Origin: a virus
Virus genome (UHGV): UHGV-1370948
Reading direction: 5' to 3' (one strand)
DNA: 64,000 bases
Made by a program: the position numbers and the translations under genes. Below, piece by piece: positions 10,093 through 62,853 of the stretch (position 1 is its first letter; every line of letters begins with the position of its first letter). The notes below the pieces were generated by a model, which had not been told where the DNA came from, searched no databases, and was given only the letters and a program-made list of their open reading frames with translations.

Positions 10093-10149
10093 TATTTTAG
10101 TAAGTAAGTAACCACATACTATTAAATCATTTTAGTAAGTAATCACATA
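10093..10149. promoter_or_regulatory. two direct repeats ATTTTAGTAAGTAA(GTAAC/TC)CACATA, candidate operators of the divergent repressor
   Basis: Direct read at 10093-10117 and 10129-10149. Both contain the TAAGTAA half-site that is also found in the dispersed palindromes. Confidence 0.5.
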
Positions 10150-10369
10150 TTTACGTATTGTTCAAGACTAAACCACTAAACCAAAAATGTAAACCCACAC
10201 CGCCAACTTTGGGCTACGGCGCTAAATAACCACAAAATAGAATAAAAATCAATAGGCTAAGTCTGCTTTTTTGATGCAAATTTGTTGTAATCTTAAAAAA
10301 ATAATAGTAACTTTGACATGAATCATTTAAGACATACTAATAAGCAATAAACTATTTAATGGTATTAAC

Positions 10370-10588
10370 ATGAATGCAATTTTGAACTGGATGTCGACGG
10401 CGACAAAACTATCAGCAATATCTTTGAGTGACCAAATCGGAGCCGACATCATTTGCGAACTGGGCGCGAAAGATGGACACATAGCAGGCTCCGATGATCT
10501 TTTTTTCCATATTAATCATCTAGATAAAGATTTCGCTTTAGTACAGGGAATTTCGAACTACACTCTCATTTGCATTCACACCAACTAA
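10370..10588 (+). CDS. hypothetical protein, first gene downstream of the operator region
   Basis: 72 aa. TTGACA -35 at 10313-10318 with a TACTAAT-like -10 upstream. Occupies the position expected for a cro-like gene but has no obvious HTH. Confidence 0.3.
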   Translation: MNAILNWMSTATKLSAISLSDQIGADIICELGAKDGHIAGSDDLFFHINHLDKDFALVQGISNYTLICIHTN

Positions 10589-10635
10589 GATTTACCCTTC
10601 CTTTTTGGCTTTATACTTTCATTGATTGTGATTAT

Positions 10636-10672
10636 CATACCCATAAATAATAAGCATTTATTTATGGGTATG
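10636..10672. promoter_or_regulatory. perfect 15-bp inverted repeat CATACCCATAAATAA / TTATTTATGGGTATG ending 2 nt before the cobT-like start codon
   Basis: Direct read. The loop taagcat relates it to the ATAAGxxTTACTTAT palindrome family. Confidence 0.5.
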
Positions 10673-10674
10673 TC

Positions 10675-12663
10675 ATGAAAAAGACTTCAGTTAAAGATAT
10701 CACTAAGTTTCGCGAGGCGATTAAAAACGTCGTTTCAATGCTGGTAGCACGCAACATCCCCGTCATAGAACGTGGAGATAAGGCATATGTTGAATACAAC
10801 AAAGCCGGCGAACCTCTCTGCATCTGCATACCATCAATACCCGACGACGCCAGCGACAAGTTCCTGATGGCGGTACGCGGATTCATCGATCACGAAGTCG
10901 CTCACGTCCTTTTCACAGACAGTACGAAAGCCACCAGCTTCGTCTGGAACGCCGTAGAAGACACCTTCATTGAGCGAAAAATGGGGGAGATGTTCAAAGG
11001 CTCCAGAGCAAACCTCATCAACACACAAAAGCATGTCATCGATACGGTTTTCATTCCTAAAGAAATGGAGGCCATTGCTGAAAAGCTGGGCGATCAGACC
11101 CGTATGTTTATGGAGTTCTATCTGGTTCCCGTGCTGCGTGCTTGGAATGATCAAACGCCGTTCATCGACTACATGGAAGACCGCTGGGAGCGCGTTAAAG
11201 AGCCTGTATCAATCCTGATTAAACATGGCGTCGATAAGATGATCCCCAAAATATGCAGCACGAGCGATAGTGTGGCAGTGGCCTCGCTAATTGTCCGACT
11301 ACTGGTCGACAAGCCAATGGAAAGTGAAGACCCAGGTGAATCAAAGGAAAATGGGGAAGGTAAAGGAAAGTCTTCAAGCGAATCGTCTAATGACGATTGC
11401 GGTGATGGCGATCTACCCTGGCATGGCGATGATGAGCCTGAAGATAGTGAGGAAAAGGATTCCCCAGGATCAGTTGATAACGAAGAGGGGGAAACCGAAT
11501 CGGCCGACGACGGAGATGGCGGCTCTTCACAGTCAGAAGAAGACAAAAAGGCTGATGGTATCGGAGACGAACCTGGCGACCCGGAAAGCGGAGCGAGGGA
11601 TATACCAAAACCAACGAAAGGTGATCTGGAAAAGCTGGAGTCAACCAAACTTCCAAAAGGCGCCATGGATATGTCTATGGAAGGGGCAATGAAGATGATT
11701 ATTTCCAGCGAATCCGAATTGTCGACCGGCTATCGTCCGTATGAGCGCACTTACGACTTTATGGGGAGGCTTGAGCACGCATCGGAGTTCTTCAGAAACG
11801 TTCTGGCCACTTCGCCGAAAGGGTTCCACATGTACGGTGACGCTGATAACTACATGGTGATCCCAAAACATGAGGCCGTCTTCAATAAGAATATTAAGCC
11901 TCTAATTGGCGATGACATCGTCGCGACACTCGCTAAAGACCTTGAGCGAACGATAGCCAGCCAGAACCGCAATCAGTTTGTTCCAGGTCAGCGTCGCGGC
12001 CGACTGCATGGCCCAAGTCTGTATCGCCTGTCCGTCGATGATGACCGAGTTTTTCGCAAGCTGGAGGTCAAACGCGCGGTCAACTCATGCGTGCAGATTG
12101 TTATTGATATGTCTGGCTCCATGAGAGGGCAAAAAATCAAGACAGCTTGTGCAGCAGCCTACACACTGGCGGATGCATTGGCGCGTATCAACGTGAAAAC
12201 TATGATAACCGGCTTCACAACATCTTCTCTGGCGATGCCTGGGAAGTCCGAGTTTAACCGCTCTGAAGCGCTTTTTCTGCCAATTATCAAGGGGTGGGAG
12301 ACGCCGATATCCAGCAAACAAACGATATGCAACCTAGGTGCTCTCGCAGGTACGATGATACTGGCTGAAAATATCGATGGAGAAAGCATACTGGCCTTGC
12401 TTCAACATTTCTCTGGCCGCCAGGAAGATCGCAAAATCATGATTGTGCTTAGTGACGGAAGCCCAGCGGCTCAGGGGCGTGGTTTGACTGGCCACCTGAA
12501 AATGGTCACAAAACAGATTGAGCAGGATACCGATATCCATCTTCTAGGGATCGGGATTTTGACAGACGCTCCGCGTCACTTCTACCGCGACAACATCTGT
12601 CTGAACAATGTTGGTGATTTAGCCGAAACGCTCATCAAGCAAATGCAACGCCTACTTTCGTAG
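10675..12663 (+). CDS. CobT-like vWA-domain protein with a polyacidic disordered segment
   Basis: 662 aa. C-terminal vWA MIDAS motif (VQIVIDMSGSM). Long run of D/E/S/G-rich low-complexity sequence. Paired with an AAA+ protein downstream, as in phage CobS/CobT modules. Confidence 0.65.
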   Translation: MKKTSVKDITKFREAIKNVVSMLVARNIPVIERGDKAYVEYNKAGEPLCICIPSIPDDASDKFLMAVRGFIDHEVAHVLFTDSTKATSFVWNAVEDTFIERKMGEMFKGSRANLINTQKHVIDTVFIPKEMEAIAEKLGDQTRMFMEFYLVPVLRAWNDQTPFIDYMEDRWERVKEPVSILIKHGVDKMIPKICSTSDSVAVASLIVRLLVDKPMESEDPGESKENGEGKGKSSSESSNDDCGDGDLPWHGDDEPEDSEEKDSPGSVDNEEGETESADDGDGGSSQSEEDKKADGIGDEPGDPESGARDIPKPTKGDLEKLESTKLPKGAMDMSMEGAMKMIISSESELSTGYRPYERTYDFMGRLEHASEFFRNVLATSPKGFHMYGDADNYMVIPKHEAVFNKNIKPLIGDDIVATLAKDLERTIASQNRNQFVPGQRRGRLHGPSLYRLSVDDDRVFRKLEVKRAVNSCVQIVIDMSGSMRGQKIKTACAAAYTLADALARINVKTMITGFTTSSLAMPGKSEFNRSEALFLPIIKGWETPISSKQTICNLGALAGTMILAENIDGESILALLQHFSGRQEDRKIMIVLSDGSPAAQGRGLTGHLKMVTKQIEQDTDIHLLGIGILTDAPRHFYRDNICLNNVGDLAETLIKQMQRLLS

Positions 12664-12761
12664 CCGTTTTTTTGGGCAAGGATGATAAGTAAATACTTAT
12701 TTCCTTGTCTGTTATATATAAGTATCATTGACACATCAGAACTACTTCAAAAGGAAAACAC

Positions 12762-14012
12762 ATGTCGGTCGAATTGCAGAACAAAACAGTCGCTGAACAA
12801 GAAAAATCTCGCGAGATCGAAGAAAAGCCTATTTTGTGCAAATGGTGTGGCGGCGAGACCCATCATGTCGGTTCTCATTTCATTGGAAAAAAATGCTCTA
12901 GCATCCCGAAAGAGCACGAAAACAAGACGCCTAATGAATTGATGAAAATCTATGTTGCTGCATTTCCTGAAGCCCCGACTATGTCTGCAGCTGCCGCCAA
13001 ACGTCTGAAAGAGCACCAGGTCAAAAAGAAAGAAGAGCCATCTGTGACTCACGTCGGATATGCCGGTTTCGAAGACTACATGGTCGAAAAGGTTGCAGTG
13101 CATGAAATACTCGGTCTCGATGCTGACTTATTGAAGACGGCATCTGGCGAACCTTTGCGCATCACCGTAAACATCAACAAACCATTCCCGGAATTCGTGC
13201 CAAAAGCGAATCCTGACTATGTGTTCGGCGACATCGAGTTGCTTAAAGACGTGCTTATGATGATCGAGATGCGTATCCCTGGGTATCTATGGGGTCACGC
13301 AGGAACCGGCAAGAGCACGCTACCAACTCAGCTTTGCGCTCGACTAAACCGCCCTATCATCCGTGCGCAGCACACCGCGTCCACTGAAGAGTCGCATATC
13401 TGCGGGCAAATTCTTGTGCGCAGTGGTGCGACTTATTTCGAGCCAGGTCTTCTGGCAAGTGCAATGCGTAACGGGTGGGTTTATCTGGCAGATGAATATG
13501 ATTTCGCGTTCCCGCAAATCCTTGGCGTTTACCAGCCAGTGTTGGAAGGCGAACCACTGATCATCAAAGAAGCGACCCCGGAGTGGCGCTACGTCGAACC
13601 GCATAAACGATTCGCTTTCATCGGAACTGGCAACACCAATGGTTCCGGTGATGAAACTGGATTGTATCAGGGCACGAATATCCAGAACGCAGCTAACTTC
13701 TCTCGTTTCGGCATCGTCTCACACGTCAAGTACATGGACAGGTCTCATGAGTCCGCGATGCTGGAGAAAATGGGTTTACCGAAAGTGTACGCGACCATGC
13801 TTATCGATTTCGCAACCCGAATCCGTAGCGGGTATGAGGCAGGAAATATTAGCCAACCCATCGGGCCACGTGAACTGCGCAATGCAGCAGTGATTGGAAT
13901 GGCGCACAAAAACTTCAAGAAAGGCGTGACGAAGTCTTTCATCAATAAATTACCGTCCACCAGCGCGGTATCCGCAACCGAGATAGCGCAGCGCATCTTT
14001 GGTGATGAATAA
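12762..14012 (+). CDS. CobS-like / MoxR-family AAA+ ATPase
   Basis: 416 aa. Walker A HAGTGKST, plus Walker B and sensor regions typical of the CbbQ/CobS AAA_5 family. Confidence 0.7.
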   Translation: MSVELQNKTVAEQEKSREIEEKPILCKWCGGETHHVGSHFIGKKCSSIPKEHENKTPNELMKIYVAAFPEAPTMSAAAAKRLKEHQVKKKEEPSVTHVGYAGFEDYMVEKVAVHEILGLDADLLKTASGEPLRITVNINKPFPEFVPKANPDYVFGDIELLKDVLMMIEMRIPGYLWGHAGTGKSTLPTQLCARLNRPIIRAQHTASTEESHICGQILVRSGATYFEPGLLASAMRNGWVYLADEYDFAFPQILGVYQPVLEGEPLIIKEATPEWRYVEPHKRFAFIGTGNTNGSGDETGLYQGTNIQNAANFSRFGIVSHVKYMDRSHESAMLEKMGLPKVYATMLIDFATRIRSGYEAGNISQPIGPRELRNAAVIGMAHKNFKKGVTKSFINKLPSTSAVSATEIAQRIFGDE

Positions 14013-14193
14013 AGGTTGCTTTGGCTCAGCATTGACAGCCTCGGAAAAAAGCGAGATCTGCGCCCGATGTGGTGACAGATCTCGCTGTCATGATGAAGCC
14101 CGTAAAAACATTGAGGCTATGTTTGGGAAGTTTGTCGGATTCCCGATTGACAGCGTTAAAAATAAAAAAAGAACCACGAAGGAAAGCACATGA
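14005..14193 (+). CDS. hypothetical small Cys-rich protein
   Basis: About 62 aa. CARCGDRSRCH motif. Fills the gap between the cobS-like gene and dnaE. Start codon uncertain (TTG 13999, GTG 14002 or ATG 14005). Confidence 0.25.
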   Translation: MNKGCFGSALTASEKSEICARCGDRSRCHDEARKNIEAMFGKFVGFPIDSVKNKKRTTKEST

Positions 14194-16562
14194 AGGCATT
14201 AATGGTACGCACCGATTTTTCTCTTGGTGAATCGGCGCTGAAAGCAAGCCGCGTAGCGAAGGCTGCGAAAGAGTTAGGTTATTCAGCCATTATCAGCGCA
14301 GACACAATGAGTCTGGCTTCAATCATCCCGCTGCAGCAGTCGGCTGGTGATGACCTGGCTGTTATTTGCGGCGTCCGTCTGGTCATTAGTGACAATCCGC
14401 TTTATGAAGGCATGGTCAGAAAAGCCAAAGAGGAAGGTACAGAGATTCCGGTATGCAAGCCTGGTCGTCTGTACAGCTTCACAGCGTTGATAAAGAACGA
14501 TGAAGGGTATAAAGATCTGTGTGAGCTGATGACGTTGGGCAACCGCCGCGAACAGTTTTACTTTTTCCCGCGCATCTCGTTGGAGCAGCTGGCCGAAACG
14601 TATTCAAAGGGCAACATCCTTCTACTGACGTCTGATCGCGATAGCATATTTCATCGGCAGGACTTCGTTAAAATCCTGACTAAATTGCTGGAGGTTGGTG
14701 GGCGTGGCAACTTCTACAGCGTTGTGTATCCGATTGCTACGCCTCTCTACGATCAGTTGAACATGAAGGCGATGAAGGTGGCTAATGCGCTTAAAATCGC
14801 CCCTGTTGCGTTCTATCCAGCTTATTACGAGAAAGAAGAGGACGCAGACCTGCGCGACATTGCGCATATGGTTATCAATAACATCAAAACGGATCAGCCA
14901 TATCGTTTTCACATCCCACACCAGCGCGACAACTCAATCCAGAACCGCAAGCATTTGCTGGTTCGCTTGATGGAATTCTCGAAACGCATGGGTATCGAGG
15001 GTATTAGTTCCGCGATGGTTAACGAGACTCAGGACGAAATCATTGCGGCGTGCAGCTGGCGCTGGCATGAGATGCCGGTCAGTCTGCCAGTTATGGCGGA
15101 AGATGAGGGTGATTCGTTGACGCGAATGGCGGCAGAAGGATTGAAGCGTCGTTTAACAACGCTTGAATTTGGTTGGAAGCCACCAGCAGAGCAGTATCAG
15201 GTTTACATCAACCGTTTACGTTATGAGTTGAGTGTTCTGAAAAAGCTGGGATTTTGCGGCTACTTCCTGATGGTTGAAAATCTACTGTCATGGGCGCGTA
15301 AACAGGATATCCCGGTCGGGCCGGGTCGCGGATCGTCCGCCGGTTCACTTGTTGCGTGGGCGATTGGGATCACCAACATCGACCCGCTACGCCACGGTCT
15401 CCTGTTTGAGCGCTTCATCAACCCTGAACGTCTGGATTTGCCTGACGCGGATCTGGACTTTAGCCAGGCGCTCCGCCCCCGCGTTCTCGAATATCTTGAA
15501 GAGCATTACGGCGAAAAATATGTGGCTGGCATTCCAAACTTCTCTTATCTGGGTATGGCGTCGGCACTACGTGACACGGCACGTATCTACGGCGTGTCTA
15601 CCGAAGATATGGCGGTATCTAAGCAGTTGAAGCAATTCGATGATGAGGGATTATCTCTTGAAGAGACTCGTGAGCAGCTGGGCGCCCTCGACAAATACGC
15701 GAAAGCAAACCCGGAAGCATTCGACGCCGCGTGCAAACTCCAGTCACTGATGCGCAGCTATGGTAAGCACGCCGCGGGTGTCATCGTTTCTGGCGTACCA
15801 CTGACTGAGCGAACACCAGTTGAATTACGCAACGGGGTGCGCTGTATCGCGTTTGACAAGCGTTTCTGTGAATCTATGGGGCTTATCAAGCTGGACGTGT
15901 TAGGGCTGGCTACGCTCGATCTACTGGCTCTCGCTAAACGCTACATCAAAGAGAACGAGGGGATCGACGTTAACCTCGACGCAATCCCTCTCGATGATAA
16001 ACGCGTCCTTGAGGGTATGGCGTTGGGTGAAACAACTGGCGTGTTCCAGTTCGAGTCTGGCGGCATGAGAAACCTGCTTAAAAACCTTGGAAGCGGCATC
16101 AAACCAATGTCGTTTGAAATGGCCGTCGCCACTACCGCGCTATATCGCCCAGGCCCAATGCAGTCCGGCATGATGGATACCTACGTCAGCGTTGCGCGTG
16201 GTTATGAGGACGCTCACTCACTTCACCCAAGCCTTGACGAATTGACCAAAGAAACCAACGGGGTTTTGGTCTATCAGGAACAAATCATGAAAGCGTCGCA
16301 GATCCTCGCCGGCTTCTCTCTGTCGGAAGCAGATATGGTAAGGAAGGCGATTGGTAAAAAAGACATCGAGAAGATGAAAAAGATTGGTGCCGACTTTTCA
16401 GATCGTGCGCAGCTTGGTTGGTTGGAAGTCCAGACTGACGACGGCCAGATTGTCACTGTTCATCGCGCCGCGCTTCATCCGTGCTCTGATGGTAAGAAGC
16501 GCACTGTCGAGCAAGCCATGAAAGAAGATGCCGACATTATTGAATTTGACACCTCTAAGTAA
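14190..16562 (+). CDS. dnaE: DNA polymerase III alpha subunit, N-terminal piece (PHP, palm and part of the fingers domain)
   Basis: 790 aa. PHP domain at the N-terminus. Core motifs GPGRGSSAGSLVAWAIGITNIDPL, LFERFINPER and LYRPGPMQSGMMD match DnaE. Confidence 0.85.
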   Translation: MKALMVRTDFSLGESALKASRVAKAAKELGYSAIISADTMSLASIIPLQQSAGDDLAVICGVRLVISDNPLYEGMVRKAKEEGTEIPVCKPGRLYSFTALIKNDEGYKDLCELMTLGNRREQFYFFPRISLEQLAETYSKGNILLLTSDRDSIFHRQDFVKILTKLLEVGGRGNFYSVVYPIATPLYDQLNMKAMKVANALKIAPVAFYPAYYEKEEDADLRDIAHMVINNIKTDQPYRFHIPHQRDNSIQNRKHLLVRLMEFSKRMGIEGISSAMVNETQDEIIAACSWRWHEMPVSLPVMAEDEGDSLTRMAAEGLKRRLTTLEFGWKPPAEQYQVYINRLRYELSVLKKLGFCGYFLMVENLLSWARKQDIPVGPGRGSSAGSLVAWAIGITNIDPLRHGLLFERFINPERLDLPDADLDFSQALRPRVLEYLEEHYGEKYVAGIPNFSYLGMASALRDTARIYGVSTEDMAVSKQLKQFDDEGLSLEETREQLGALDKYAKANPEAFDAACKLQSLMRSYGKHAAGVIVSGVPLTERTPVELRNGVRCIAFDKRFCESMGLIKLDVLGLATLDLLALAKRYIKENEGIDVNLDAIPLDDKRVLEGMALGETTGVFQFESGGMRNLLKNLGSGIKPMSFEMAVATTALYRPGPMQSGMMDTYVSVARGYEDAHSLHPSLDELTKETNGVLVYQEQIMKASQILAGFSLSEADMVRKAIGKKDIEKMKKIGADFSDRAQLGWLEVQTDDGQIVTVHRAALHPCSDGKKRTVEQAMKEDADIIEFDTSK

Positions 16563-16575
16563 TAAGTAAAATGTG

Positions 16576-16615
16576 AAAACAAGTTGTTTTTTAGTTTCTG
16601 AAAACAACTTGTTTA
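16576..16615 (+). promoter_or_regulatory. two tandem copies of the AAACAAnTTGTTT palindrome in the 70-nt gap that splits dnaE
   Basis: aaaacaagttgtttt at 16576-16590 and aaaacaacttgttta at 16601-16615. Preceded by taataagtaa stop codons. Followed by the consensus RBS. Confidence 0.5.
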
Positions 16616-16632
16616 ATGACAAAGGAAAACAC

Positions 16633-17793
16633 ATGAAGATTACTAAAATCATCTCAGAGAAGCCCGGACTCAGCGAATCAAAAGCAAAAGAGGTCTGGGA
16701 TGCTTTCGAGAAATTCGGGTCGTATGGCTTTAACAAATCACACGCCGTGGCCTATACCGCAATCAGCTACCAGGCAATGTATCTGAAGACTCACCATCCG
16801 GCTGCATTCTTCGCCGCCGCACTGACAATTCAGGATGATGAAAAACACCGAGCTGTTGTAAAGGATGCACTGGCACGCGGCGTTATTGTGATGCCGCCAG
16901 ACATCAATCTCTCAACTGACCGCATCGAAATAGTCGAACTGAAGGATGGCCGGGCGGCGCTATATGCCCCCTTCTCAGCTGTCAAAGGTTGTTCTGAAAA
17001 AGGCAGCTTAGCCATTATGCGTGCTCGCGAGCGTGTAGGTGGTAAGTTTGAGTCGCGAGCACAATTCAAGGAAGCGATAGAGGCCAGACTTTGCAATATC
17101 CGAGTTCAGGAGGCTCTGGAAGCCGTTGGTGCATTTGCCAGTATTGAGCCTGGCAGCGAACCGGCGATGGCAGAATCCCGCCGCAAGGCTCAATCAGAGC
17201 TGATGGGAAGCCTCATTATCGATGCGGTAAAAGTGAGTCGCCCGTTCGAGATGAATCCGAAACGCCAGGCAGAAGTGTCGATGTTGATGGAAGAGCTGCG
17301 TAAAGAGGTCGGGGTGGGCGAAGATCTGGTTACTCCGCATATCGGCGTATCGCCAAAAATAATGATTATCCTCGACACAGCAAACGGCAACGATATCAGG
17401 ACGGGGATCTTCATGGAGAACGGCTACGAAGATTTTAAGGCGAAAATGCTCGTTAATGGCGATCTGCGCATGAGCGAGGTGTACGTTACCGGCGTCATTA
17501 AGCAAGATAAGAAGTTGCCACTGTCCCGCGACGCAGAGAACACCTACATCGAGTTTATGAAGAAAGAGCTTGAGCTGGTTAAACCAACCTACGTCCTGAC
17601 GTGTGGTCGCCTATCGGCCAGTCTCTTCAACGACAAAACCAAGGCAACGGATTTGGTCGGACGTAAGGAATACTTTGGCGCAATGGACTTGACCGTGTTT
17701 TACGGATTCAATCCGGGCATACTTCACTTCAGACCGGAAGAAGGTGAGAAATTGGAACTTATTATGGAAGACATTAAGGAAGCATTGTCATGA
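16633..17793 (+). CDS. dnaE: DNA polymerase III alpha subunit, C-terminal piece
   Basis: Starts at the consensus aaaggaaaacac-ATG. SYGFNKSHAVAYTAISYQAMYLKTHHPAAFFAA aligns with DnaE residues around 750-790. About 387 aa from this start. Confidence 0.8.
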   Translation: MKITKIISEKPGLSESKAKEVWDAFEKFGSYGFNKSHAVAYTAISYQAMYLKTHHPAAFFAAALTIQDDEKHRAVVKDALARGVIVMPPDINLSTDRIEIVELKDGRAALYAPFSAVKGCSEKGSLAIMRARERVGGKFESRAQFKEAIEARLCNIRVQEALEAVGAFASIEPGSEPAMAESRRKAQSELMGSLIIDAVKVSRPFEMNPKRQAEVSMLMEELRKEVGVGEDLVTPHIGVSPKIMIILDTANGNDIRTGIFMENGYEDFKAKMLVNGDLRMSEVYVTGVIKQDKKLPLSRDAENTYIEFMKKELELVKPTYVLTCGRLSASLFNDKTKATDLVGRKEYFGAMDLTVFYGFNPGILHFRPEEGEKLELIMEDIKEALS

Positions 17794-18212
17794 GCGAGGT
17801 TACAGTGTCACAGGAGTATATCGATAAGGCAATTATCGCTCTAAATAAGTCAGCATTCTGGGAGTTCGCAGACTGTCCCGTCACCATTCGTCTCGCTATG
17901 CGGCAGGCGGAGCTTGATGGGCGCCGAGCGAATAGCGCAGCACGTAGCGCAGCAAAGATAATTCTGAAGCGCGTGCGCGACCCGATGGTTCGAGATTATG
18001 TCGCTGTGATAGCTAAATCAAGCAATGTCAAAAAACACCTTGCTGAGTTTGAGGCTTATCGAGACCGACTGATATCAAAGGTTGCGGAGGAATTTGTCGA
18101 GGTAGGTAAAGCGGCCAGCGTCAAAGACTACCGTCTCCAGCGTGCTCAGCGTATAGCCATTACCGGGCGGGGAGTCGGAAAAAGAACGCTGGCAGAAATG
18201 TACGTAGCCTAA
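17790..18212 (+). CDS. hypothetical protein
   Basis: 140 aa. Start overlaps the stop of the dnaE C-terminal piece. Confidence 0.5.
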   Translation: MSEVTVSQEYIDKAIIALNKSAFWEFADCPVTIRLAMRQAELDGRRANSAARSAAKIILKRVRDPMVRDYVAVIAKSSNVKKHLAEFEAYRDRLISKVAEEFVEVGKAASVKDYRLQRAQRIAITGRGVGKRTLAEMYVA

Positions 18213-18257
18213 TTGTTCGTGTTAATATTTAAGCTCAAAGATAAGTAAGGATTTACT

Positions 18258-18422
18258 ATGGATTTAACCATTCCAATGTTCGTTTTAGCCTACTTAATCG
18301 CTGGCATCGGTTTCGCGAAAATCTGGTCTGAAGCGGCGAGTTGCGGTGATGTTGAGCTGAAGATAATCGGCTGCATCTTCTGGCCGATTGGACTGTTTGT
18401 TAGCGCTTTCTGGAGCTGGTAA
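18258..18422 (+). CDS. small membrane protein (54 aa, two predicted TM segments)
   Basis: Translated by hand as MDLTIPMFVLAYLIAGIGFAKIW...FWSW. RBS taagga. Its stop overlaps the next ATG. Below the 60-aa ORF-track cutoff. Confidence 0.4.
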   Translation: MDLTIPMFVLAYLIAGIGFAKIWSEAASCGDVELKIIGCIFWPIGLFVSAFWSW

Positions 18423-18862
18423 TGGATAAGGCGATCATCAAAGAAGTGATGGATGACATCAGGCTTGATACGCATGATTTGGACGCTGTCTGGCGTCGTC
18501 AGCCGGAGCTTGTCGCCATTTATGGTTTTAAACAGGTTGAGGCTGAAAGCGCCGCGAATGCTGCAAAGCGAGATTTAGAATCCATCGAAGCACGTCTCTA
18601 TTCGACGACGCGTGCCGGTCTGAGTTTCGACGGTGTGAAGATCAGCGAATCGACGATTGAAGCCAAAATAAAGTCGTCTCCGGCGTATCTTTCGGCTCGC
18701 CAAAAGTACGATGACGCGAAGTATCTCGCTGAGTTTTACAAGCAGGTTGTAAACGCACTCGGACACCGTCGAGACATGATCGTTCAGGCGTCTAAAAAGG
18801 CAATTTCCGAATACGAAAGAACAGGTGTTGAACGATTCAACGCCCCTAAAAATGTATCTTGA
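18422..18862 (+). CDS. hypothetical protein
   Basis: 146 aa ORF. Confidence 0.5.
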   Translation: MDKAIIKEVMDDIRLDTHDLDAVWRRQPELVAIYGFKQVEAESAANAAKRDLESIEARLYSTTRAGLSFDGVKISESTIEAKIKSSPAYLSARQKYDDAKYLAEFYKQVVNALGHRRDMIVQASKKAISEYERTGVERFNAPKNVS

Positions 18863-18928
18863 TAATAAGTGATCGCTTATCTATCATAACCAAGTGCAAT
18901 AAAAGCCATTAACAATAAAGGAAAACAC

Positions 18929-19906
18929 ATGTCCGCTTTAATGAACCTTCTGAAGAAAAGCCAAGAAGTTGCGAAAAACGCACGCGGCAATCGCGGGAAC
19001 GATCTGCAAAAGATGCAACCAGGCGAAAACTACGTTCGCATCATCCTGAACAAAGACGACCCTGACAATATTCCATTCTCCCACAAGTACGGCATTCACT
19101 ATGCCAAATCTAAAGGCGAAGATGGGAAGGACGTATACAGCGCTCATCTGTGCTTTCAGCATACCCATGATAAGCCGTGCGAAATGTGCGAAATGGTTAT
19201 GGAAGCTAAAGCGAAGTACAAAGGCAACAAAGCCATGGAAAAAGTCATTGACGATATGCGTGCCTCTCCGCGCATGGCTGTTGTCGGCATGTGGTCTCAG
19301 AAAGAAGACTTCAGCGACACCGACAAGACTTCTCTCATCGATATGCCTATGTCCGTGTTTGACGACCTGATGGACGCCATTATGCAGGATATGAACGATG
19401 AGATCGGCGAGCCGCTGAGCCGCGAAAAAGGTTACGCGTATCAAATTACTCGCACCGGCTCTGGTCTGGACACTGATTACAAAGTCAAACCGATGCGTAA
19501 AAACAAAACAGCCGTTCCGGCTAAGTTCTGGGATAACCAACCGTCTCTGGAACAGTTTGTAAACCAGACCGATCCGACAAAACTGATGGCGACCTCCAAA
19601 ATGATTGCTCGCGCGACCGGCATCGCACTGCCAGCGTCTATGGGTTCAAGCGCCGGCGCTCTGCCAACCCCAACCGGCAAAGCAGCTGCATCTCTTCCGG
19701 GCATGACCATTACCGGAGTTGATGACTCAACTGCCGAAGCCTCTTTGCTGGATAAAGAAGTTGAATACGCGAAAGAAGCCGTATTCGAGCCAGAAGAGAA
19801 AGAGGTAAAAGAAGTAAAAGAAGCGCCAGCAAGCGAGCCAGCAGCTGAGCCGGAAAACGAAGATCTGGATGACATTTACGCGCAACTTAACGCGCTTTCA
19901 ATGTAA
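18929..19906 (+). CDS. single-stranded DNA-binding protein, T4 gp32-like (putative)
   Basis: 325 aa. H-x-C-x6-H-x3-C-x2-C zinc-site-like motif (HLCFQHTHDKPCEMCE). Acidic C-terminal tail EPEEKEVKEVKEAP...EDLDDIYAQLNAL. Confidence 0.45.
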   Translation: MSALMNLLKKSQEVAKNARGNRGNDLQKMQPGENYVRIILNKDDPDNIPFSHKYGIHYAKSKGEDGKDVYSAHLCFQHTHDKPCEMCEMVMEAKAKYKGNKAMEKVIDDMRASPRMAVVGMWSQKEDFSDTDKTSLIDMPMSVFDDLMDAIMQDMNDEIGEPLSREKGYAYQITRTGSGLDTDYKVKPMRKNKTAVPAKFWDNQPSLEQFVNQTDPTKLMATSKMIARATGIALPASMGSSAGALPTPTGKAAASLPGMTITGVDDSTAEASLLDKEVEYAKEAVFEPEEKEVKEVKEAPASEPAAEPENEDLDDIYAQLNALSM

Positions 19907-19923
19907 GCCAGCCGTTGATTTTA

Positions 19924-19950
19924 AAGGCGTCTTCGGACGCCTTATTTATT
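19924..19950 (+). terminator. rho-independent terminator
   Basis: aaggcgtc-ttcg-gacgcctt followed by atttatt. Confidence 0.55.
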
Positions 19951-19951
19951 C

Positions 19952-20929
19952 GTGGAGAACAATGCCGTGAACATTTTAATAATCGACGGAAATAGCCTCG
20001 GTTACTACCACCAGCAGCAACCAAAAAAACTCCATAGCGGCGATATGGAGACCCACGCAGTGTTTGGTTTTATCACCAACATGCGCCGCTATGCTTCGCT
20101 TCTGAAGGCTCGACCAATAGTTCTGTGGGATGGTTTCAGCGATAAGCGTCGCGAGTTTTACCCGGACTACAAAGCCAATCGTGACGACAACGCAGAAATG
20201 AAACAGATGAAAGAAGGTTTTGCAGTCCAAAAGCCCTTCATCAAAAAAGCAATCACCTCGCTGGGTGTTGATCAGATTACTGCAATCGACGGTGAAGCTG
20301 ACGATTTGGCCGGAATTCTGAAGAAGCGTTATGTTGCGTCGAAAGACGTCGAGCACATCTACCTGTTAACCGCGGACTCCGACTGGATTCAGCTGGTTGA
20401 CGAAAAGGTAACATGGGTCAGTTTGCGCGAGGATACTAAGCATAAGCGCATCAATATCGAGGCGTTCCCTGAGTTGACTGGCTACCCAACGCCACGCGGC
20501 TATCTGGAAGGTAAAGCGCTGCAGGGTGACAAGTCGGACAACATTCAGCAAGTCGGTGGCATTGGTGACAAAGGCGCGATGGATCTGATTAACGAGTATG
20601 GCTCCATTGTTACGCTGGTTAAGGGGATTTGCGATGGATCTATTGTCATGGACAAAGGTCGCAACAAAACGGCAGTGAATAACCTGGCAAAGAACGCTTT
20701 CAATGAGAAAACCGGCTGTCGGATGCTTGAAGCGTTTATGCGGAATATTAAGTTGATGGATCTCATCGACACCAAATTCGCCCCGGAGAAGCTGGAGATT
20801 ATTCGCGGTGAGCAAAGTCTGGAAGCATTTAAGCAAATCTGTATGCAGTTAAATTTCCAGTCAATCCTCAGCGATCTGGATGTTTTTGTCGTGCCGTTCG
20901 TTAAGCGCTGCGGGTTGGTGGCTGAATGA
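19952..20929 (+). CDS. 5'-3' exonuclease / flap endonuclease (T5 D15 / T4 RNase H family)
   Basis: IIDGNSL motif and acidic metal-binding clusters. GTG start at 19952. A GTG at 19967 with a GGAGA RBS is an alternative. Confidence 0.7.
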   Translation: MENNAVNILIIDGNSLGYYHQQQPKKLHSGDMETHAVFGFITNMRRYASLLKARPIVLWDGFSDKRREFYPDYKANRDDNAEMKQMKEGFAVQKPFIKKAITSLGVDQITAIDGEADDLAGILKKRYVASKDVEHIYLLTADSDWIQLVDEKVTWVSLREDTKHKRINIEAFPELTGYPTPRGYLEGKALQGDKSDNIQQVGGIGDKGAMDLINEYGSIVTLVKGICDGSIVMDKGRNKTAVNNLAKNAFNEKTGCRMLEAFMRNIKLMDLIDTKFAPEKLEIIRGEQSLEAFKQICMQLNFQSILSDLDVFVVPFVKRCGLVAE

Positions 20930-21186
20930 TTGCGTCAATTATTACTGGAAAATCCACTACGCCGACCGCGCTGGCGAAGGAGTTAGTCTTCACCTATGGC
21001 GAGTATGTCGTGTCTGATTTTAACGCGTGCATCGTCGGTCACAAAATCGCTCTGACAGCGCGTGAAGTAGATATCGTGAAAGGCCATATTCTCACCATCA
21101 TTGAGCGATCCGCAAAAATGATGAACTGCGACACCATCACATTTAACCGTGAACAAGCCGAAAAAGAAATCGGCTTAACTAAATAA
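20926..21186 (+). CDS. hypothetical protein
   Basis: 86 aa. Start overlaps the upstream stop. Confidence 0.45.
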   Translation: MIASIITGKSTTPTALAKELVFTYGEYVVSDFNACIVGHKIALTAREVDIVKGHILTIIERSAKMMNCDTITFNREQAEKEIGLTK

Positions 21187-21202
21187 AACCAAAGGAAAAC
21201 AC

Positions 21203-22270
21203 ATGAAAAAGTCACCATTAGCAGTAGCCATGAAAAAACGTATCGGCGGAAATGATGAGATCCAGAAAGTCGAGCAATGGCTGGACACCGGTTTTCCCCC
21301 GTTAAACGAAGCCGTTTCTGGTGATCTGGAAGGCGGTCTTCCTTGTGGGCGTATTGTGGAGATTTTTGGACCTCCGTCTGCAGGCAAAACTTTCCTCGCA
21401 ACCCGCGCGATGATTGCAGCGCAGAAGGTCGGAGGTATCGCCGTATTCCTCGATCATGAAAACAGTTTTGACGTTGGTCTGGCTGAAGTTATGGGACTTC
21501 AATCTGATGAAGATGAAGGTAATTGGGTCTATAAGCAGCCTGACACCTTTGAGGATGCCATCGACTTGACCGGGCAAATCTTGTCTCTGGTTCGCAAGGA
21601 GAGTCTGATCCCAGCTGAAGCGCCCATCGTCATTGTCTATGACTCGCTGGCCTCAATGGTTCCGCGCCAGAAGTTCGAGAAGTTCGAGAAGATGGCGGAT
21701 GGCACGGCCAAAGAGAAAGACGAGCTGAATATGAACGACAACACGGCACTGGCTCGCGCGACTTCGGCAAATCTCCCAACGCTGGCTAAGTGGGCGCAGA
21801 AGTACAATGCCTGCCTCATTTTCCTGAACCAGGTTCGTACAAAAATGGGCGTCATGTTCGGAGACCCTACCACTTCACCAGGCGGCGACTCCCCGAAATT
21901 CTACGCTTCCGTCCGCATCAAGCTGGGTGGCGGTCAGTTGAAAGAAGGCGGCGATCGTGTTGGTCAGCTGGTTAAAGCAGAGTGCGTCAAAAACAAGGTG
22001 GCGCCACCGTTCCAGAAATGTGAATGGAACTTCTACTTCGACCCTTCGCGTGGTCTGGACGTCGTAGAATCGCTTGTAGAGTACATGCTTGATAAGGGAT
22101 ACATTCCGAAGACGTCCACCGGGCGCATCGAGATTGGCGACAAGAAGTATACAAAGTCCCAGATCGTCGATATGTACCGCGAGAAGGATTTGAGCGAAAT
22201 CGTGAAGGCTATTAAGTCGATTCAGGCGAAGATGAAGTCAAAGGACGAATTAGAGCCAGCTGACGCGTAA
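21203..22270 (+). CDS. RecA/UvsX-family recombinase
   Basis: 355 aa. Walker A GPPSAGKT. RecA-like core order with loop L1/L2 regions. Confidence 0.7.
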   Translation: MKKSPLAVAMKKRIGGNDEIQKVEQWLDTGFPPLNEAVSGDLEGGLPCGRIVEIFGPPSAGKTFLATRAMIAAQKVGGIAVFLDHENSFDVGLAEVMGLQSDEDEGNWVYKQPDTFEDAIDLTGQILSLVRKESLIPAEAPIVIVYDSLASMVPRQKFEKFEKMADGTAKEKDELNMNDNTALARATSANLPTLAKWAQKYNACLIFLNQVRTKMGVMFGDPTTSPGGDSPKFYASVRIKLGGGQLKEGGDRVGQLVKAECVKNKVAPPFQKCEWNFYFDPSRGLDVVESLVEYMLDKGYIPKTSTGRIEIGDKKYTKSQIVDMYREKDLSEIVKAIKSIQAKMKSKDELEPADA

Positions 22271-22287
22271 ATCACCAGAGAGCGACC

Positions 22288-23013: not shown

Positions 23014-23136
23014 TCGTCTTCCCGGCCGTTAAAACGATCATGGTATGCAGGATAAAAACAGGGTTCAACATGTTTTGCTTGATGATAAGTAAGCGCTTAT
23101 CTATTATGTGTAAGCTTTTCAACAAGAGAAAACACA

Positions 23137-23348
23137 TGACCACAAAACTGTATTTGAAAATCTGCGTCACGATCGGGTTTGCGATGACGATGGTAGGGTT
23201 AGTTATCCCCTATCTCATCTCTCAAAAAAGCGACATCACTGTCCTGATTGGCTTCGTGCTGATGTTCGCAACCCCCTTCGCTTCCTATAAAGCGGCTAAA
23301 AGCATTATCCATCAACTAATTCTCTTCACGGCACATTCACAGAGGTAA
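23137..23348 (+). CDS. small membrane protein (about 70 aa)
   Basis: Starts after gagaaaacac-ATG. Two hydrophobic segments. Confidence 0.45.
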
Positions 23349-23472
23349 AAAACAGTGACATTGCAGAGTAATAGGTAAGTAGAAAGATAATTCTGTGACC
23401 GCGTAACATTTTTGATTCACCTCAATTAAGAACATAAGATAACAACTTGTTTATTACAACAAAGGAAAACAC

Positions 23473-23745: not shown

Positions 23746-23779
23746 ATAATAAGTAGACATTTATTTAATGAGGTGTAAT

Positions 23780-24488: not shown

Positions 24489-24516
24489 CATTAGATAAAT
24501 TGTTAGTGGTTACTAA

Positions 24517-53579: not shown

Positions 53580-53652
53580 TCACCTTAAACAATTTGTTTT
53601 CTACCTTTTCTGGTTTGTGATAATAACGTCAACCAGAAAAGGAGAACCCAAC

Positions 53653-57408: not shown

Positions 57409-57473
57409 CGTTTGTATTGTAAGTGTTTACTTACCGGTATATATTTACCTTGCTCAACAACATGGAGGTAGCA

Positions 57474-59114: not shown

Positions 59115-59240
59115 AAAAAGCGCCATCGTGGGCGCTTTTCTTTCGTCTGGTATGCTCGGATCACTGGAAACGCAAAAAGCGCCCATAGTGGGCGCTGGTG
59201 GCTGTATAGCGGAAACGAAAAAAGCGCCCATGGTGGGCGC
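59115..59240 (-). repeat. three tandem copies of a roughly 35-bp unit, each containing the hairpin AGCGCCCA-nnn-TGGGCGCT flanked by an A/T run. These act as stacked rho-independent terminators for the minus-strand gene ending at 59247
   Basis: Direct read. Hairpins at 59115-59140, 59174-59196 and 59217-59240. On the minus strand each hairpin is followed by TTTTT. Confidence 0.7.
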
Positions 59241-60200: not shown

Positions 60201-60749
60201 TTATATTTCTTGATTAAGGGGAATGATTCGGTCAACCCAATCATAGAAAATCTGGACGACTCTGCCGTCCGACAACCTTATACCTGCTGACTGCTCATTC
60301 ATGCCGGTGGACACGCCATTCAAGACTCGGTTGTCTGAGAGATAGACCCTTATAGGCTTTCCCTGCTGGTGGGCGTATCGGATAACTTGAAAGAAATCTT
60401 TCCCCGAACGCACAAAGCCACCATCCTCAAAATCCCCGCGCTTCAGTGTCGTTTGACCCTTATAGGCTGTGTCGACTTCAGAGGCGGCAATGCGCTCTGC
60501 CGAGATGATGTAATCGACGGGTATGATGACGCGATTAGCCTTATGGTCGTCGGTTAATGGGCTGAGATAGATACGATGGGACTTGATGTCAAATCCAGTA
60601 ACAAGCATCGAGAAAACCAGCTCGTTCGCTGTAACCACCCTTACAGGTAATTTTCTGCGTTGCGCGTTCTTGAAATAATCCATCGTTGTGTTTAGGTTTC
60701 TTTCTTTCTCAGCGTCTATGCCGTAAGTGAAGTCTGTAGGTGCGTTCAT
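60201..60749 (-). CDS. hypothetical protein
   Basis: 182 aa. Third gene of the helicase operon. Confidence 0.5.
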   Translation of the reverse strand: MNAPTDFTYGIDAEKERNLNTTMDYFKNAQRRKLPVRVVTANELVFSMLVTGFDIKSHRIYLSPLTDDHKANRVIIPVDYIISAERIAASEVDTAYKGQTTLKRGDFEDGGFVRSGKDFFQVIRYAHQQGKPIRVYLSDNRVLNGVSTGMNEQSAGIRLSDGRVVQIFYDWVDRIIPLNQEI

Positions 60750-60814
60750 GATATTAACCAGACATTAGAATTAAAATAAATAGTACGCCCACCATGAGCG
60801 TACTATCAAATATT

Positions 60815-61165
60815 TTATTTTTGTGTATTTTCTATTGCCATCTTTTTTAATATTCTTAAATCATCATCATTCATTTCTGAATTTAGAAATACCTGAACAA
60901 TGTCGTTTCTAATCTTGTCACCGAAAATATCAGATAAATCTTTACTGAAGTGTTTGACGTTAAGGTTTTCAAGCAGGAGGTTGATGATGCATGTTTTTGA
61001 CAGCTTTATATTTTCTGCACGTAGCAAGTGTTGAATTTTAAGAAGCTTACCATCAGCCTTTGCAGAAAGTTTGAGATGGCAGTTTACTGGTCTATCAGTC
61101 ACTGCCTCTTGGCGCCCACGATCTGAGTCGGTTTTGGATGGTTGATGTTGCATTTGCTCTTTCAT
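60815..61165 (-). CDS. hypothetical protein
   Basis: 116 aa. Second gene of the helicase operon. Confidence 0.45.
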   Translation of the reverse strand: MKEQMQHQPSKTDSDRGRQEAVTDRPVNCHLKLSAKADGKLLKIQHLLRAENIKLSKTCIINLLLENLNVKHFSKDLSDIFGDKIRNDIVQVFLNSEMNDDDLRILKKMAIENTQK

Positions 61166-61210
61166 AAACTTTACCCTAAAGGAGCCGGCTCAAAAGACCG
61201 GCCACACACT

Positions 61211-62788
61211 TTACGATTCAAGAATCGAGAAGTCGAATTTCCCGTCTATATCTAAAATGCCTTCAGAAAAACCAGGCGTAGTGGAAATGATGTGTTTTCT
61301 CTCGTAAGAGTGAGACATCAGATGTTTGTTGGACGTATCCAGAAAATCGGCAATGAAACATACGTTCGCTTTCCCCTTTTTCTTTCGTAGACCACGACCC
61401 ACGCGTTGTCGAAGTTCAACTTCAGCCTTGCCACCACCGGCTATGATGACCGCGCCTACGCTTGGCACATCTACGCCGACGTCCAGAATTGTCGAGCCGA
61501 TAAGAACGTCGATTTTCCCCGCGGCCAGTTCTGCCAGTTTTGCGGAACGAGTTGCGGCAGATGACTTGCCGTTGATAAAGCTCGAAACCAGCCCACGCTC
61601 TTCCAACATAGTCTTTAGAATCTGCCCATGCCGTTCATGTCTAACCAGCGTCATGCAGCTCAGATTGTGGCGCTTAAACTCTTCAGCAGTATCCACGATA
61701 GCTCGGTTTCTGGCGAGATTATACGTGATACCTAACTGATAAGCTTTTTGGTATGCGGTCGACATACTAACGCGGAAGTTGACATGTTTGCCTGTTAATT
61801 CCTTGTTTAGAAGCTCGATATCTGGAACGTACCCGATTTTACGATAAAGGAAAACTGGTTTTGCTAAAATACCCTTATCAATCAGATATTTTTCAGACAC
61901 TTTGATTTCTATTCGACCAGATACAGCCATCAGACGCATGTTATCTTCGGTACTGTCCTTCATGAAAGGCGTCGCGGTTAGCGCAAGACGATAGTCTGCG
62001 TTTTTGCAGAGTCTGGCGATTTCATAAAAACTCTCACCCGACGCCTCATGAGCTTCCTCAAGGATTAGAAGCGAGACCTTAGACAGCATTTGTTTCATCA
62101 GTTCACGTCGACGTAGATGAAATTCTCGTTTCTCTTTCGACAGATCGCTACCAGGCTCGCTCAGGAAGCTGGATAGCGTCTGGACAGTCGCCACGTTAAT
62201 AAATCGAGAGAACTTCAGCTCGCCGGAACCAATGATACCGACCTTTTCGTTTTTGAGCCACGGCTCACCATGGGCAGCTCGATAATCGATGGACTCCTGG
62301 AAATTGTCAGCCATCTGGAACATTAGCATCGAGCGAGTGGTGATAAACAGCGTCATCCTGCCGATCCTTGCTGCGGCTTTGCACGCGATTTGCGATTTGC
62401 CGCCACCGGTGGCAACCTGAGCAATCATTCCACCAAATCGAACCAGGCGCTCACAAGTCTCGTCCTGATAGGCGTAATCAGGATTGTATGGGAATGGGCT
62501 TACGACGGGGTTTGGGTTGCCTAGAGGTTTGGTCAGTTCTTTTCGAACCAGAGCACATTTGATGCCAGACCGGCCAAGATCTGCAGCAACGGCACGAGCG
62601 AACCCGGCCGGAAATACACCGTTGGCCCAGCTGAACATTGAGCTTTGACCATCCCAGCCACTTCCGCCGCCGCCGTATCTTCCGCCGTCTACTTCATAGC
62701 TGAGCATTTTCTGTATTTTCAATTTCACATCGTCATTTGCTCCCTTGACGATGGCATTGACTGCGTCAAACACGATTCTGACTGTCAT
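61211..62788 (-). CDS. SF2 DEAD/DEAH-box helicase (type III restriction res-subunit-like) with a 190-aa N-terminal extension
   Basis: Motif I ATGGGKS, motif II LILEEAHE, motif III LTATP, motif VI QRVGRGLR. The N-terminal Gly-rich segment is of unknown function. Confidence 0.75.
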   Translation of the reverse strand: MTVRIVFDAVNAIVKGANDDVKLKIQKMLSYEVDGGRYGGGGSGWDGQSSMFSWANGVFPAGFARAVAADLGRSGIKCALVRKELTKPLGNPNPVVSPFPYNPDYAYQDETCERLVRFGGMIAQVATGGGKSQIACKAAARIGRMTLFITTRSMLMFQMADNFQESIDYRAAHGEPWLKNEKVGIIGSGELKFSRFINVATVQTLSSFLSEPGSDLSKEKREFHLRRRELMKQMLSKVSLLILEEAHEASGESFYEIARLCKNADYRLALTATPFMKDSTEDNMRLMAVSGRIEIKVSEKYLIDKGILAKPVFLYRKIGYVPDIELLNKELTGKHVNFRVSMSTAYQKAYQLGITYNLARNRAIVDTAEEFKRHNLSCMTLVRHERHGQILKTMLEERGLVSSFINGKSSAATRSAKLAELAAGKIDVLIGSTILDVGVDVPSVGAVIIAGGGKAEVELRQRVGRGLRKKKGKANVCFIADFLDTSNKHLMSHSYERKHIISTTPGFSEGILDIDGKFDFSILES

Positions 62789-62853
62789 TTTTTGATTTCC
62801 TTCGTGCCTTATTTGTGTTAATTGGGTATTCTATGTAAGTAATCATTTACTAA

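Follow-up and report, generated by a model that had tools for sequence, protein, structure and literature searches.

In phage P1 a single repressor, C1 (283 aa), acts at more than 10 operators scattered round the phage-plasmid genome. Cro/CI-type repressors, such as those of phages 434, P22 (c2) and lambda, bind palindromic operators of 14-18 bp that are gathered in two or three clustered operator regions. In the cluster A mycobacteriophages (L5, Bxb1) the repressor has 20-30 "stoperators", most of which lie in short intergenic gaps (PMC6550527). Here we analyzed a stretch of 64,000 nucleotides of the virus genome UHGV-1370948 (hereafter the window), which belongs to a Klebsiella phage-plasmid (~110 kb) of the SSU5/pHCM2 kind and in which a 20-bp palindrome recurs at gene boundaries. 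This palindrome is probably the operator of the phage-plasmid's own small XRE-family lysogeny repressor, and its copies would together constitute a multi-operator immunity regulon.

The window was scanned with the pattern ATAAGTAANNNNTTACTTAT, that is ATAAGTAA-N4-TTACTTAT, allowing up to 3 mismatches, and the expected numbers were obtained from shuffles. Fourteen copies were present against 0.20 expected (the largest number in a shuffle was 3), and the half-site TAAGTAA was found 27 times against 4.9 expected. Twelve of the 14 copies were non-coding, compared with a non-coding fraction of 13.2% (binomial p = 2e-9). This placement was common to four genomes, where 82-93% of the sites fell in non-coding DNA as against non-coding fractions of 11-18% (p from 2e-9 to 1e-19). 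The palindromes were usually located 0-30 bp 3' of the stop codon of the preceding gene. These results confirmed that the dispersed palindrome described in an earlier note on this DNA, immediately 3' of stop codons or 5' of start codons, is real. The note had further held that the motif itself supplies in-frame stop codons; this was so at 44238 and 45389, where the stop codon overlaps the motif, and often in the relatives, where it lies inside it, but not at 18865 and 23749, where it precedes the motif by 2-3 nt. A scan match at 9766, inside a coding sequence, is probably due to chance.

The palindrome can be described as a 20-bp symmetric element made of four-base units, A-(TAAG)(TAAn)-nn-(nTTA)(CTTA)-T, with a conserved 14-bp core, RGTAA-N4-TTACY, and perfect copies at 31454, 44238 and 45389. 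It is therefore, as had been pointed out, different from the operator of P1, which is an asymmetric 17-mer of the ATTGCTCTAATAAATTT type. The half-site centres are separated by ~9 bp, a distance that suits a helix-turn-helix dimer bound to adjacent major grooves.

Since many copies lie just past stop codons or just 5' of start codons, the palindrome might instead function as RNA: a weak hairpin located in 5' leaders or where transcripts end could have a role in RNase III-type processing, attenuation or mRNA stability. Some copies do fold better than shuffles, for example that at 31454 (-7.2 kcal/mol, z = -5). However, pairing was not selected: at arm positions 4 and 17 (R and Y, respectively) the 64 informative sites were distributed as AT 25, AC 16, GT 15 and GC 8, which is the distribution of independence, and A-C mismatches were not avoided (16 observed against ~15 expected). 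Stem energies ranged from -1.3 to -7.2 kcal/mol, most of them weak, and a T-rich tail followed the site in only 10 of 69 cases (2/14, 6/30 and 2/25). Furthermore, the copies in the divergent promoter regions (62835 and upstream of the XRE gene) need not be crossed by any single transcript. The independence of the arms, the weak folding and the scarcity of T-tails led us to reject an RNA hairpin or terminator, the alternative that the earlier note had left standing, and make any action in RNA most improbable; they imply that each half-site is constrained as double-stranded DNA, in the way expected of a dimeric protein.

Sequence comparisons placed the window among known elements. Positions 9000-29000 were 100% identical to plasmid pKqq_SB1124_3 (NZ_CP084809.1) and positions 40000-63796 were 99.6% identical to OW968253.1, while the matches in the phage collection comprised only short stretches of 74-79% identity to SSU5-like phages, e.g. 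Escherichia phage Cyrano. Two complete relatives were used, namely Cyrano, an SSU5-like phage of E. coli, and a typical Klebsiella relative, NZ_CP098158.1 (KpTyp). A de novo search for spaced inverted words, run on the window, KpTyp and Cyrano, led us to identify two palindromes in all three, TAAGT...ACTTA and a separate motif, AAACAAnTTGTTT, which is treated below. The consensus of the first was sharper in KpTyp (ATARGTAAGTACTTACYTAT), and the R/Y consensus with up to 3 mismatches was found 30 times in KpTyp and 25 times in the other complete relative, with at most 1 expected. The copies of KpTyp were distributed genome-wide, with some at the terminase/portal junction, at the portal gene's 3' end and in the capsid, tail and holin regions. 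Orthologous sites were shared by the window, KpTyp and Cyrano upstream of parB, nrdA, dam, thyX and the XRE gene, in the gap between cobT and cobS, and after a conserved terminator. A lack of positional conservation in relatives had been named beforehand as a possible refutation; the positions were kept at nucleotide identities of ~75% or less (Klebsiella pZ0117KP0017-4 and Cyrano).

Among these sites, a motif at 12685-12704, a perfect 16-mer (ATAAGTAAATACTTAT) between the cobT-like and cobS-like genes, has orthologues at KpTyp 57377, Cyrano 45264 and, in an Acinetobacter relative described below, 22634. The motif at 27057-27076, 88 bp upstream of the gene for an SbcD-like metallophosphoesterase, corresponds to KpTyp 73984 and Cyrano 63199, that at 36606-36625, 14 nt before the start of the thymidylate synthase gene (thyX), to KpTyp 83429 and Cyrano 72595, and the perfect copy at 45389-45408, which abuts the upstream stop codon, to KpTyp 92918 and Cyrano 79651. 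The site upstream of nrdA (31454) was found at KpTyp 78676 and Cyrano 67883, with the same terminator in both. The nine copies that had been called clear were all present, with two positions corrected (23085 instead of 23095, and 27057-27076 instead of 27061). Three of the four copies called degenerate are true members of the family, because each has an orthologous site in relatives: that at 43193, upstream of the adenine methyltransferase gene dam (KpTyp 89043, Cyrano 77436); a core motif at 57420-57433 (TAAGTGTTTACTTA), directly 3' of a terminator-like GGGGC-T6 run (KpTyp 103673, Cyrano 96691); and that at 62835-62854, in the 65 bp that separate the divergent UvsW-like helicase operon (minus strand) and parB (plus strand) (KpTyp 110411, Cyrano 105107, Acinetobacter 75202). 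The fourth, at 10651, was rejected as a copy, as it is the loop of a different inverted repeat with a 13-bp stem, ATACCCATAAATA-ataagca-TATTTATGGGTAT. Two weak copies, at 18241 and 23749, had been missing from the note's list; the former (18241-18260, 3 mismatches) is located just 5' of a small open reading frame (ORF) at 18258-18422.

A variant differing in one base, with TCAG units, was found at the same gene boundaries in Acinetobacter and Rhizobium relatives. The more distant temperate relatives comprised the Acinetobacter baumannii phage-plasmid NZ_CP115640.1, Rhizobium phage RHEph10 (60% guanine plus cytosine (GC), with repC) and the contigs L210 and L214 (58-59% GC, RepC-type) and L217. 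The Acinetobacter element carried neither TAAGT palindromes nor the motif AAACAAnTTGTTT when scanned; TCAGT-N4-ACTGA occurred in it 24 times against 0.13 expected, with the consensus A-(TCAG)(TCAG)-TA-(CTGA)(CTGA)-T, in comparable locations and in many cases within TTGAAA-N18-TATACT promoters. In RHEph10 sites of the TCAGTCAATATTGACTGA type were found (AGTCA-N8-TGACT, 5 times against 0.01 expected), in L210 and L214 TAAGT-N8-ACTTA occurred 6 and 5 times per 20 kb (0.009 and 0.005 expected, respectively), and L217 had mixed units. As judged from these sequences, the conserved architecture is A-(TMAG)2-TA-(CTKA)2-T, with two TMAG units per arm and A or C preferred by lineage.

The position of the palindrome relative to promoters indicated what kind of protein might read it. 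Promoters were called by a consensus scan for sigma-70-like -35 and -10 boxes, overlaps in gene direction were counted, and the same motifs in shuffled flanks served as a control. Between 10 and 50 kb of the window 22 plus-strand calls were made, and such calls fell on 7 of the 12 sites, with ~0.3 overlaps expected by chance. In the four genomes 34 of 95 sites overlapped a gene-direction call, four times the 8.5 obtained with shuffled flanks, which implies that the -35 and -10 boxes are present in addition to the motif. Relative to the predicted start the palindrome was centred at -18.5 to -22.5, i.e. within the spacer, in 15 cases, at -36 to -43 in 7 and at +1.5 in 5.

One example was a promoter-like TTGATA-N17-TATCAT (18859-18887, plus strand, 10/12 hexamer matches) upstream of the gp32-like single-strand DNA-binding protein (SSB) gene at 18929, whose spacer is filled by the motif at 18865-18884. 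On the same strand, the motif at 23085-23104 lies in the spacer of TTGATG-N17-TATTAT (23079-23107), and a weak motif at 23749-23768 overlaps TAGACA-N16-TAATAT (the two together span 23749-23781). Upstream of nrdA the perfect motif at 31454-31473 is inside TTGATA-N17-TACTAT (31451-31479, plus strand), followed by an intrinsic terminator at 31480-31501 (the whole region being 31451-31501). The motif at 43193-43212 covers the transcript start predicted for TTGTCA-N16-TAAAAT (43167-43194; whole region 43167-43212, plus strand), and the perfect motif at 44238-44257, which abuts the upstream stop codon, contains in its right arm the -35 box of TTTACT-N17-TATCAT (44249-44277, plus strand), with a terminator at 44281-44301 (region 44238-44301, plus strand). 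The terminators at 31480-31501 and 44281-44301 begin 1-4 nt past the -10 box of these palindrome-bearing promoters, so that the predicted start falls inside the 5' stem arm; transcripts from the promoters at 31454 and 44238 would thus be without this arm, and the terminators would stop read-through from upstream and spare the operons' own transcripts. The motif at 36465-36484 is inside TTGATA-N18-TATATT (36462-36491, plus strand), and ~55 nt on there is a strong terminator (36546-36571, 11 pairs followed by T9), upstream of thyX, with the palindrome at 36606 past the terminator; this arrangement predicts an RNA of ~80 nt or an attenuated leader upstream of thyX.

Phage P1 late promoters have an inverted repeat centred near -22 that is used by the activator Lpa, and the palindrome could accordingly be an activator site or a phage-specific promoter element marking genes to be switched on. 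The centring at -18.5 to -22.5 in 15 of the 34 promoter-associated sites would agree with this, as would the fact that copies precede structural, lysis and replication operons alike. Nevertheless, the flank profile revealed no -10 box at a constant offset from the palindrome, only weak and symmetric A/T-richness, and the centres ranged from -43 to +1.5, with separate groups at +1.5 and at about -40, in contrast to the fixed position near -22, and the lack of a -35 box, of Lpa-type promoters. Many of the promoters have a good -35 box (TTGATA, TTGAAA, TTGCCA) at a spacing of 17-18 bp and should not need an activator; copies are also found upstream of the lysogeny repressor gene itself; and the virulent cousins described below, which would still need such promoters, are without the palindrome. 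We consequently rejected a fixed promoter element or activator site and regard a role in activation as improbable. The variable placement over promoter cores points to repressor operators, as an activator site or promoter element would require a fixed geometry.

The proposed binder is the product of an XRE-family (HTH_3/HTH_31-like) repressor gene at 9763-10068 on the minus strand, which encodes 101 aa. The protein matched Pfam HTH_31, HTH_3 and HTH_19 and PHROG 8 ("transcriptional regulator"), 19579 and 3, and a PDB profile search gave weak XRE-type matches (E = 0.035-0.07). The helix-turn-helix pattern of the family is clear in the alignment, with a recognition helix, ENANNISLIKSGR, that is conserved across alleles of 24-48% identity. 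The family, which comprises 108 clusters and is represented on ~870 plasmids, is nearly confined to contigs of ~100-120 kb of the phage-plasmid type, and its gene adjoins cobT in every temperate relative examined. All lineages with the small XRE repressor in this context carry the palindrome, one copy of which precedes the XRE gene itself, and 80 viral-contig loci with XRE homologues were all of the enteric type with TAAGT, with no new specificity variants.

In the window the copies upstream of the XRE gene take the form of two direct repeats, TTTTAG(TAAG)nTAA..CACATA (10093-10153), 25-85 bp from its start and containing degenerate motifs at 10101-10118 and 10136-10153; TAAGTAA is indeed the core of both repeats, as the earlier note had observed. 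In alleles of 39-48% identity the corresponding position has a single GGTAAGTRCTTACC, which in KpTyp and Cyrano is 33-35 bp from the start, the Acinetobacter element has a copy at 19665, and in L210 and L214 it is ~100-130 bp upstream. The number of repeat units next to the gene differed even in near-identical alleles, with TAAGTAAGTAAC in the window and TAAGTAAC in the contig L128, which suggests slippage, and in alleles of 80-86% identity the units were rearranged.

The virulent cousins of these elements, Pseudomonas phage nickie, scanned whole, and Stenotrophomonas phage ANB28, scanned as a 42-kb sample, are syntenic but lack the XRE/integrase/rep module, and no enriched palindrome was found in either; the best dyad of nickie reached p ~1e-4, compared with 1e-11 to 1e-46 in the temperate genomes. 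This result bears on the ParB-like protein encoded at 62854-63567, another candidate binder. The RK2 protein KorB has 12 OB sites and SopB of N15 has four scattered centromeres, and a dispersed centromere or a KorB-type global operator would be consistent with the ParB_N domain of this protein, with the presence, in each of the four complete genomes, of a copy ~20 bp 5' of parB, and with the length of the palindromes, 13-16 bp being typical of ParB/KorB sites. However, nickie, in which the two ParB-like genes (33% identity, tblastn) and the divergent helicase remain syntenic, has no enriched palindrome, which argues against ParB and ties the motif to the lysogeny module. Moreover, the sites occupy promoter cores at the head of nearly every operon, and one is at the XRE gene, neither of which a centromere would need. 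For these reasons ParB is an unlikely binder.

A host transcription factor or nucleoid protein exploited by the element was also considered, since the preferred unit differs by host group (TAAG in enterics, TCAG in Acinetobacter). Against it, the motif family is shared by elements with 42-60% GC from alpha- and gamma-proteobacterial hosts, TAAG-type sites are found in enterics and in the RepC-type contigs of 58% GC alike, and the virulent cousins in related hosts are without the motif; to our knowledge the palindrome does not match the sites of Fur, TyrR, LexA, CRP or IHF. We therefore regard a host factor as highly improbable. Two other candidates were discarded: the type I restriction-modification system at 837-6855 as reader of the motif, because the annotation of KpTyp shows no such system although the motif is present, and the "regulator" annotated at 18929, which by Pfam is the gp32-like SSB and not a transcription factor.

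Together, the overlap with promoters, the co-occurrence with the XRE gene and the copy upstream of it support the earlier suggestion of a single repressor with many scattered operators, as in P1, and we infer from these sequence features that the XRE protein is the binder and that binding represses. In further support, the Cyrano orthologue, CYRAN_45, was reported in the LF82 study to be expressed ~10-fold above the prophage background in the lysogen and was treated as the master repressor (PMC9928086, Table 1).

Several observations weigh against the XRE repressor as the reader of the palindrome. The link between the two is correlative, and the Pfam scores of the protein are below the gathering score (HTH_31, E=3.5e-4 and 21.3 bits against a cut-off of 27; HTH_3, E=1.1e-3 and 19.4 against 23). 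Two spacing sub-classes coexist in the window, TAAGT-N8-ACTTA (31454, 44238, 45389 and 36606) and ATAAG-N6-CTTAT (12685, 18865, 23085, 36465 and 27061), and a rigid dimer should not accept both. In addition, 61 of the 95 sites (~60%) had no strong promoter call, some of them being 1-15 nt 5' of a start codon or just before a terminator; these sites may be weak promoters or roadblocks to read-through. At the 42-kb sample size of ANB28 the exact-word scan was weak even for KpTyp and Cyrano. A residue-to-base covariation between the XRE protein and the units was sought, with no clean rule found, and TAAG and TCAG units are mixed within some genomes. An effect of L versus M in the recognition helix (S-L-I-K versus S/T-M-I-K) on the choice of TAAG or TCAG was refuted, since L210 and L214 combine M with TAAG; the first residue of the helix (N versus R/Q) does fit TAAG versus TCAG, in a post hoc comparison of a few lineages that none of them contradicts. 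Next to the XRE gene, a ~70-aa ORF is kept at the same position in every lineage (72 aa at 10370-10588, plus strand, in the window, between the XRE gene and cobT; CYRAN_46; RHEph10 gp042; L210 10573-10785; L217 3408-3629). It has no family match and is possibly a Cro-like partner or an antirepressor, but it could also be the binder or a co-binder. Finally, XRE homologues outside phage-plasmids (L211-L213, L215 and L216) have no such palindrome upstream, so the link cannot be confirmed independently of the phage-plasmid background. Two of these, on the metagenomic contigs L212 and L213, are distant homologues located beside type I restriction-modification and GmrSD genes in defence islands, with no TMAGT palindrome upstream.

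The system compares differently with each of the described ones. As with P1 C1, it concerns a plasmid prophage with operators dispersed over the promoters of individual lytic operons, of replication and DNA-metabolism genes and of the repressor gene itself; in contrast to P1, the operator is a symmetric 20-mer of four-base units and the candidate binder is an XRE-type protein of 101-154 aa, and no homologues of C1, Coi or Lxc were seen among the window proteins scanned. With L5 and the other cluster A phages the system shares a number of 20-30 sites per genome that fall chiefly into short intergenic gaps, and a site upstream of the repressor gene; by the promoter calls, some sites are in promoters and many are not, as in those phages, and the motif may likewise differ between lineages along with the repressor, here in the preference for TAAG or TCAG, with units mixed within genomes. 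Unlike the palindromes described here, the L5 sites are asymmetric 13-mers oriented with transcription and are read by an unrelated repressor family in unrelated hosts, and blocking of elongation of the L5 type is conjectural for the present system. In function, the L5 stoperator system may be as close a counterpart as P1 C1. The geometry of the site and the type of protein are nearest to those of the Cro/CI-type repressors, with a probable XRE/HTH_3-type protein, half-sites about one helical turn apart, and operators over promoter cores and in a divergent control region beside the repressor gene; what sets the present system apart from them are ~25-30 sites genome-wide, the tandem four-base substructure and the two spacing sub-classes. 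It also recalls KorB of RK2 (ParB family, 12 OB palindromes), as a short palindrome is dispersed near many plasmid promoters under the control of most operons by one protein, although the link to ParB is contradicted by nickie and the present sites are concentrated in promoter cores. With a symmetric site and a small XRE-type candidate repressor that is a homologue of neither C1 nor gp71, the system is a member of neither the P1 C1 nor the L5 family.

If the XRE protein is the repressor, it would occupy ~25-30 sites in the plasmid (lysogenic) state and shut the promoters at the head of the lytic transcription units, among them those of cobS, ssb, sbcD, nrdA, thyX, dam and parB in the window and of the terminase/portal, capsid, tail and holin regions in the complete relatives. 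Through the copies that precede its gene it would restrict its own production, and copies without a recognizable promoter may act as roadblocks to read-through. The protein has no peptidase or obvious oligomerization domain. A near-consensus LexA (SOS) box, TACTGTATATACATACAGTT, was found at 8705-8724, just upstream of the integrase gene, and is kept at KpTyp 52950 and Cyrano 41044. Because the integrase and XRE genes converge and the former extends over the 3' end of the latter (9763-9773), an SOS-induced integrase transcript could run antisense into the repressor gene, and this converging transcript may contribute to induction.

These elements can be joined into one picture, which we put forward only tentatively since it would more readily fail than hold in all of its parts. 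A single small XRE repressor would run essentially the whole lytic programme of the ~110-kb element through ~25-30 tandem-TMAG operators that are made, strengthened, weakened or shifted in register by slippage. The preference for TAAG or TCAG would define immunity groups across alpha- and gamma-proteobacterial elements. Some copies would be elongation roadblocks and others would be embedded with terminators, leaving each operon dependent solely on the repressible promoter of its own, and the LexA-controlled antisense integrase transcript would bring about induction.

The second palindrome, AAACAAnTTGTTT, was represented by 15 exact-word pairs in the window against 0.17 expected and was present in KpTyp and Cyrano but not in Acinetobacter. 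Its 13-bp sites were located at 16577, 16602, 23440, 38596, 46062, 47526, 49989, 50999, 51050, 53587, 53880, 54903, 56947 and 58079. They are often paired, with the first ~20 nt 5' of a GATAAT -10 box and the other (AAGAAAACAAnTTGTTTAA) within the 5' leader at ~20 nt from the start codon, as at 50999 and 51050, and sites of the -35 type stand alone at 53587 and 58079. The AAACAAnTTGTTT sites look like a second regulon. A FljA-like "repressor of phase-1 flagellin" of 182 aa (60201-60749, minus strand; Pfam PF03614 Flag1_repress, E = 3e-27; PHROG 1444), encoded by the last gene of the leftward helicase operon, was found in the three enteric genomes and was not detected in Acinetobacter, and this same pattern of presence makes it a better candidate for this motif. 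FljA acts on mRNA, and such an action would fit the copies in 5' leaders. At 10637-10671, directly 5' of the start codon of the cobT-like gene, where the window has the inverted repeat whose loop is at 10651, KpTyp and Cyrano have a leader site of this motif instead. Two non-coding stretches of the window, at 53583-53631 and 59159-59203, kept 91-93% identity in otherwise diverged relatives; the first is a AAACAAnTTGTTT promoter kept in E. coli plasmids, and the second is kept in more than 200 Klebsiella plasmids.

Nearly all genes of the window are on the plus strand. They comprise a type I restriction system, an integrase, the XRE regulator, cobT/cobS-like genes, dnaE, the gp32-like SSB gene and recA, then repA with iterons, sbcCD, nrdAB, thyX, dhfr and dam, and many small ORFs, the UvsW-like helicase and parB. 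The ~15 iterons (ACCGCTGACAGCATA-like, 24560-26090) are found on either side of repA (24853-25965, minus strand), and this region is the plasmid replication origin. A translation-start context, AAAGGAAAACAC, occurs directly 5' of ATG at 12749, 18915, 23460, 27152, 39315, 46083, 47548 and 58140, and also in Cyrano and KpTyp. Long inverted repeats, CCTGCTTCTGTATATA ... TATATACAGAAGCAGG, were observed in KpTyp (3300-3345 and 89695-89745 of the reverse complement) and in Cyrano (31160-31215 and 108340-108379); their A/T-rich loop contains TAAGT-like words, and one of them precedes the small terminase gene close to the end of the genome. These repeats differ from the operator motif and may serve as a packaging or partition site.

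Our full-text literature searches found no description of the motif, of SSU5-family operators or of the control circuit of SSU5-like elements. Among the large plasmids of clinical Klebsiella, E. coli, Salmonella (including pHCM2 of Typhi) and Enterobacter, phage-plasmids of the SSU5/pHCM2 kind rank with the most frequent, and they can carry resistance genes. If the proposed role of the palindrome is correct, our work would provide the operator sequence, a map of ~25-30 controlled promoters, a candidate repressor and a candidate SOS input for this family, whose immunity groups, induction and superinfection exclusion would become directly testable. Furthermore, it would represent a third independently evolved case of genome-wide silencing by a single repressor, beside P1 and the cluster A mycobacteriophages, and one in which the modular, symmetric operator is unusual.

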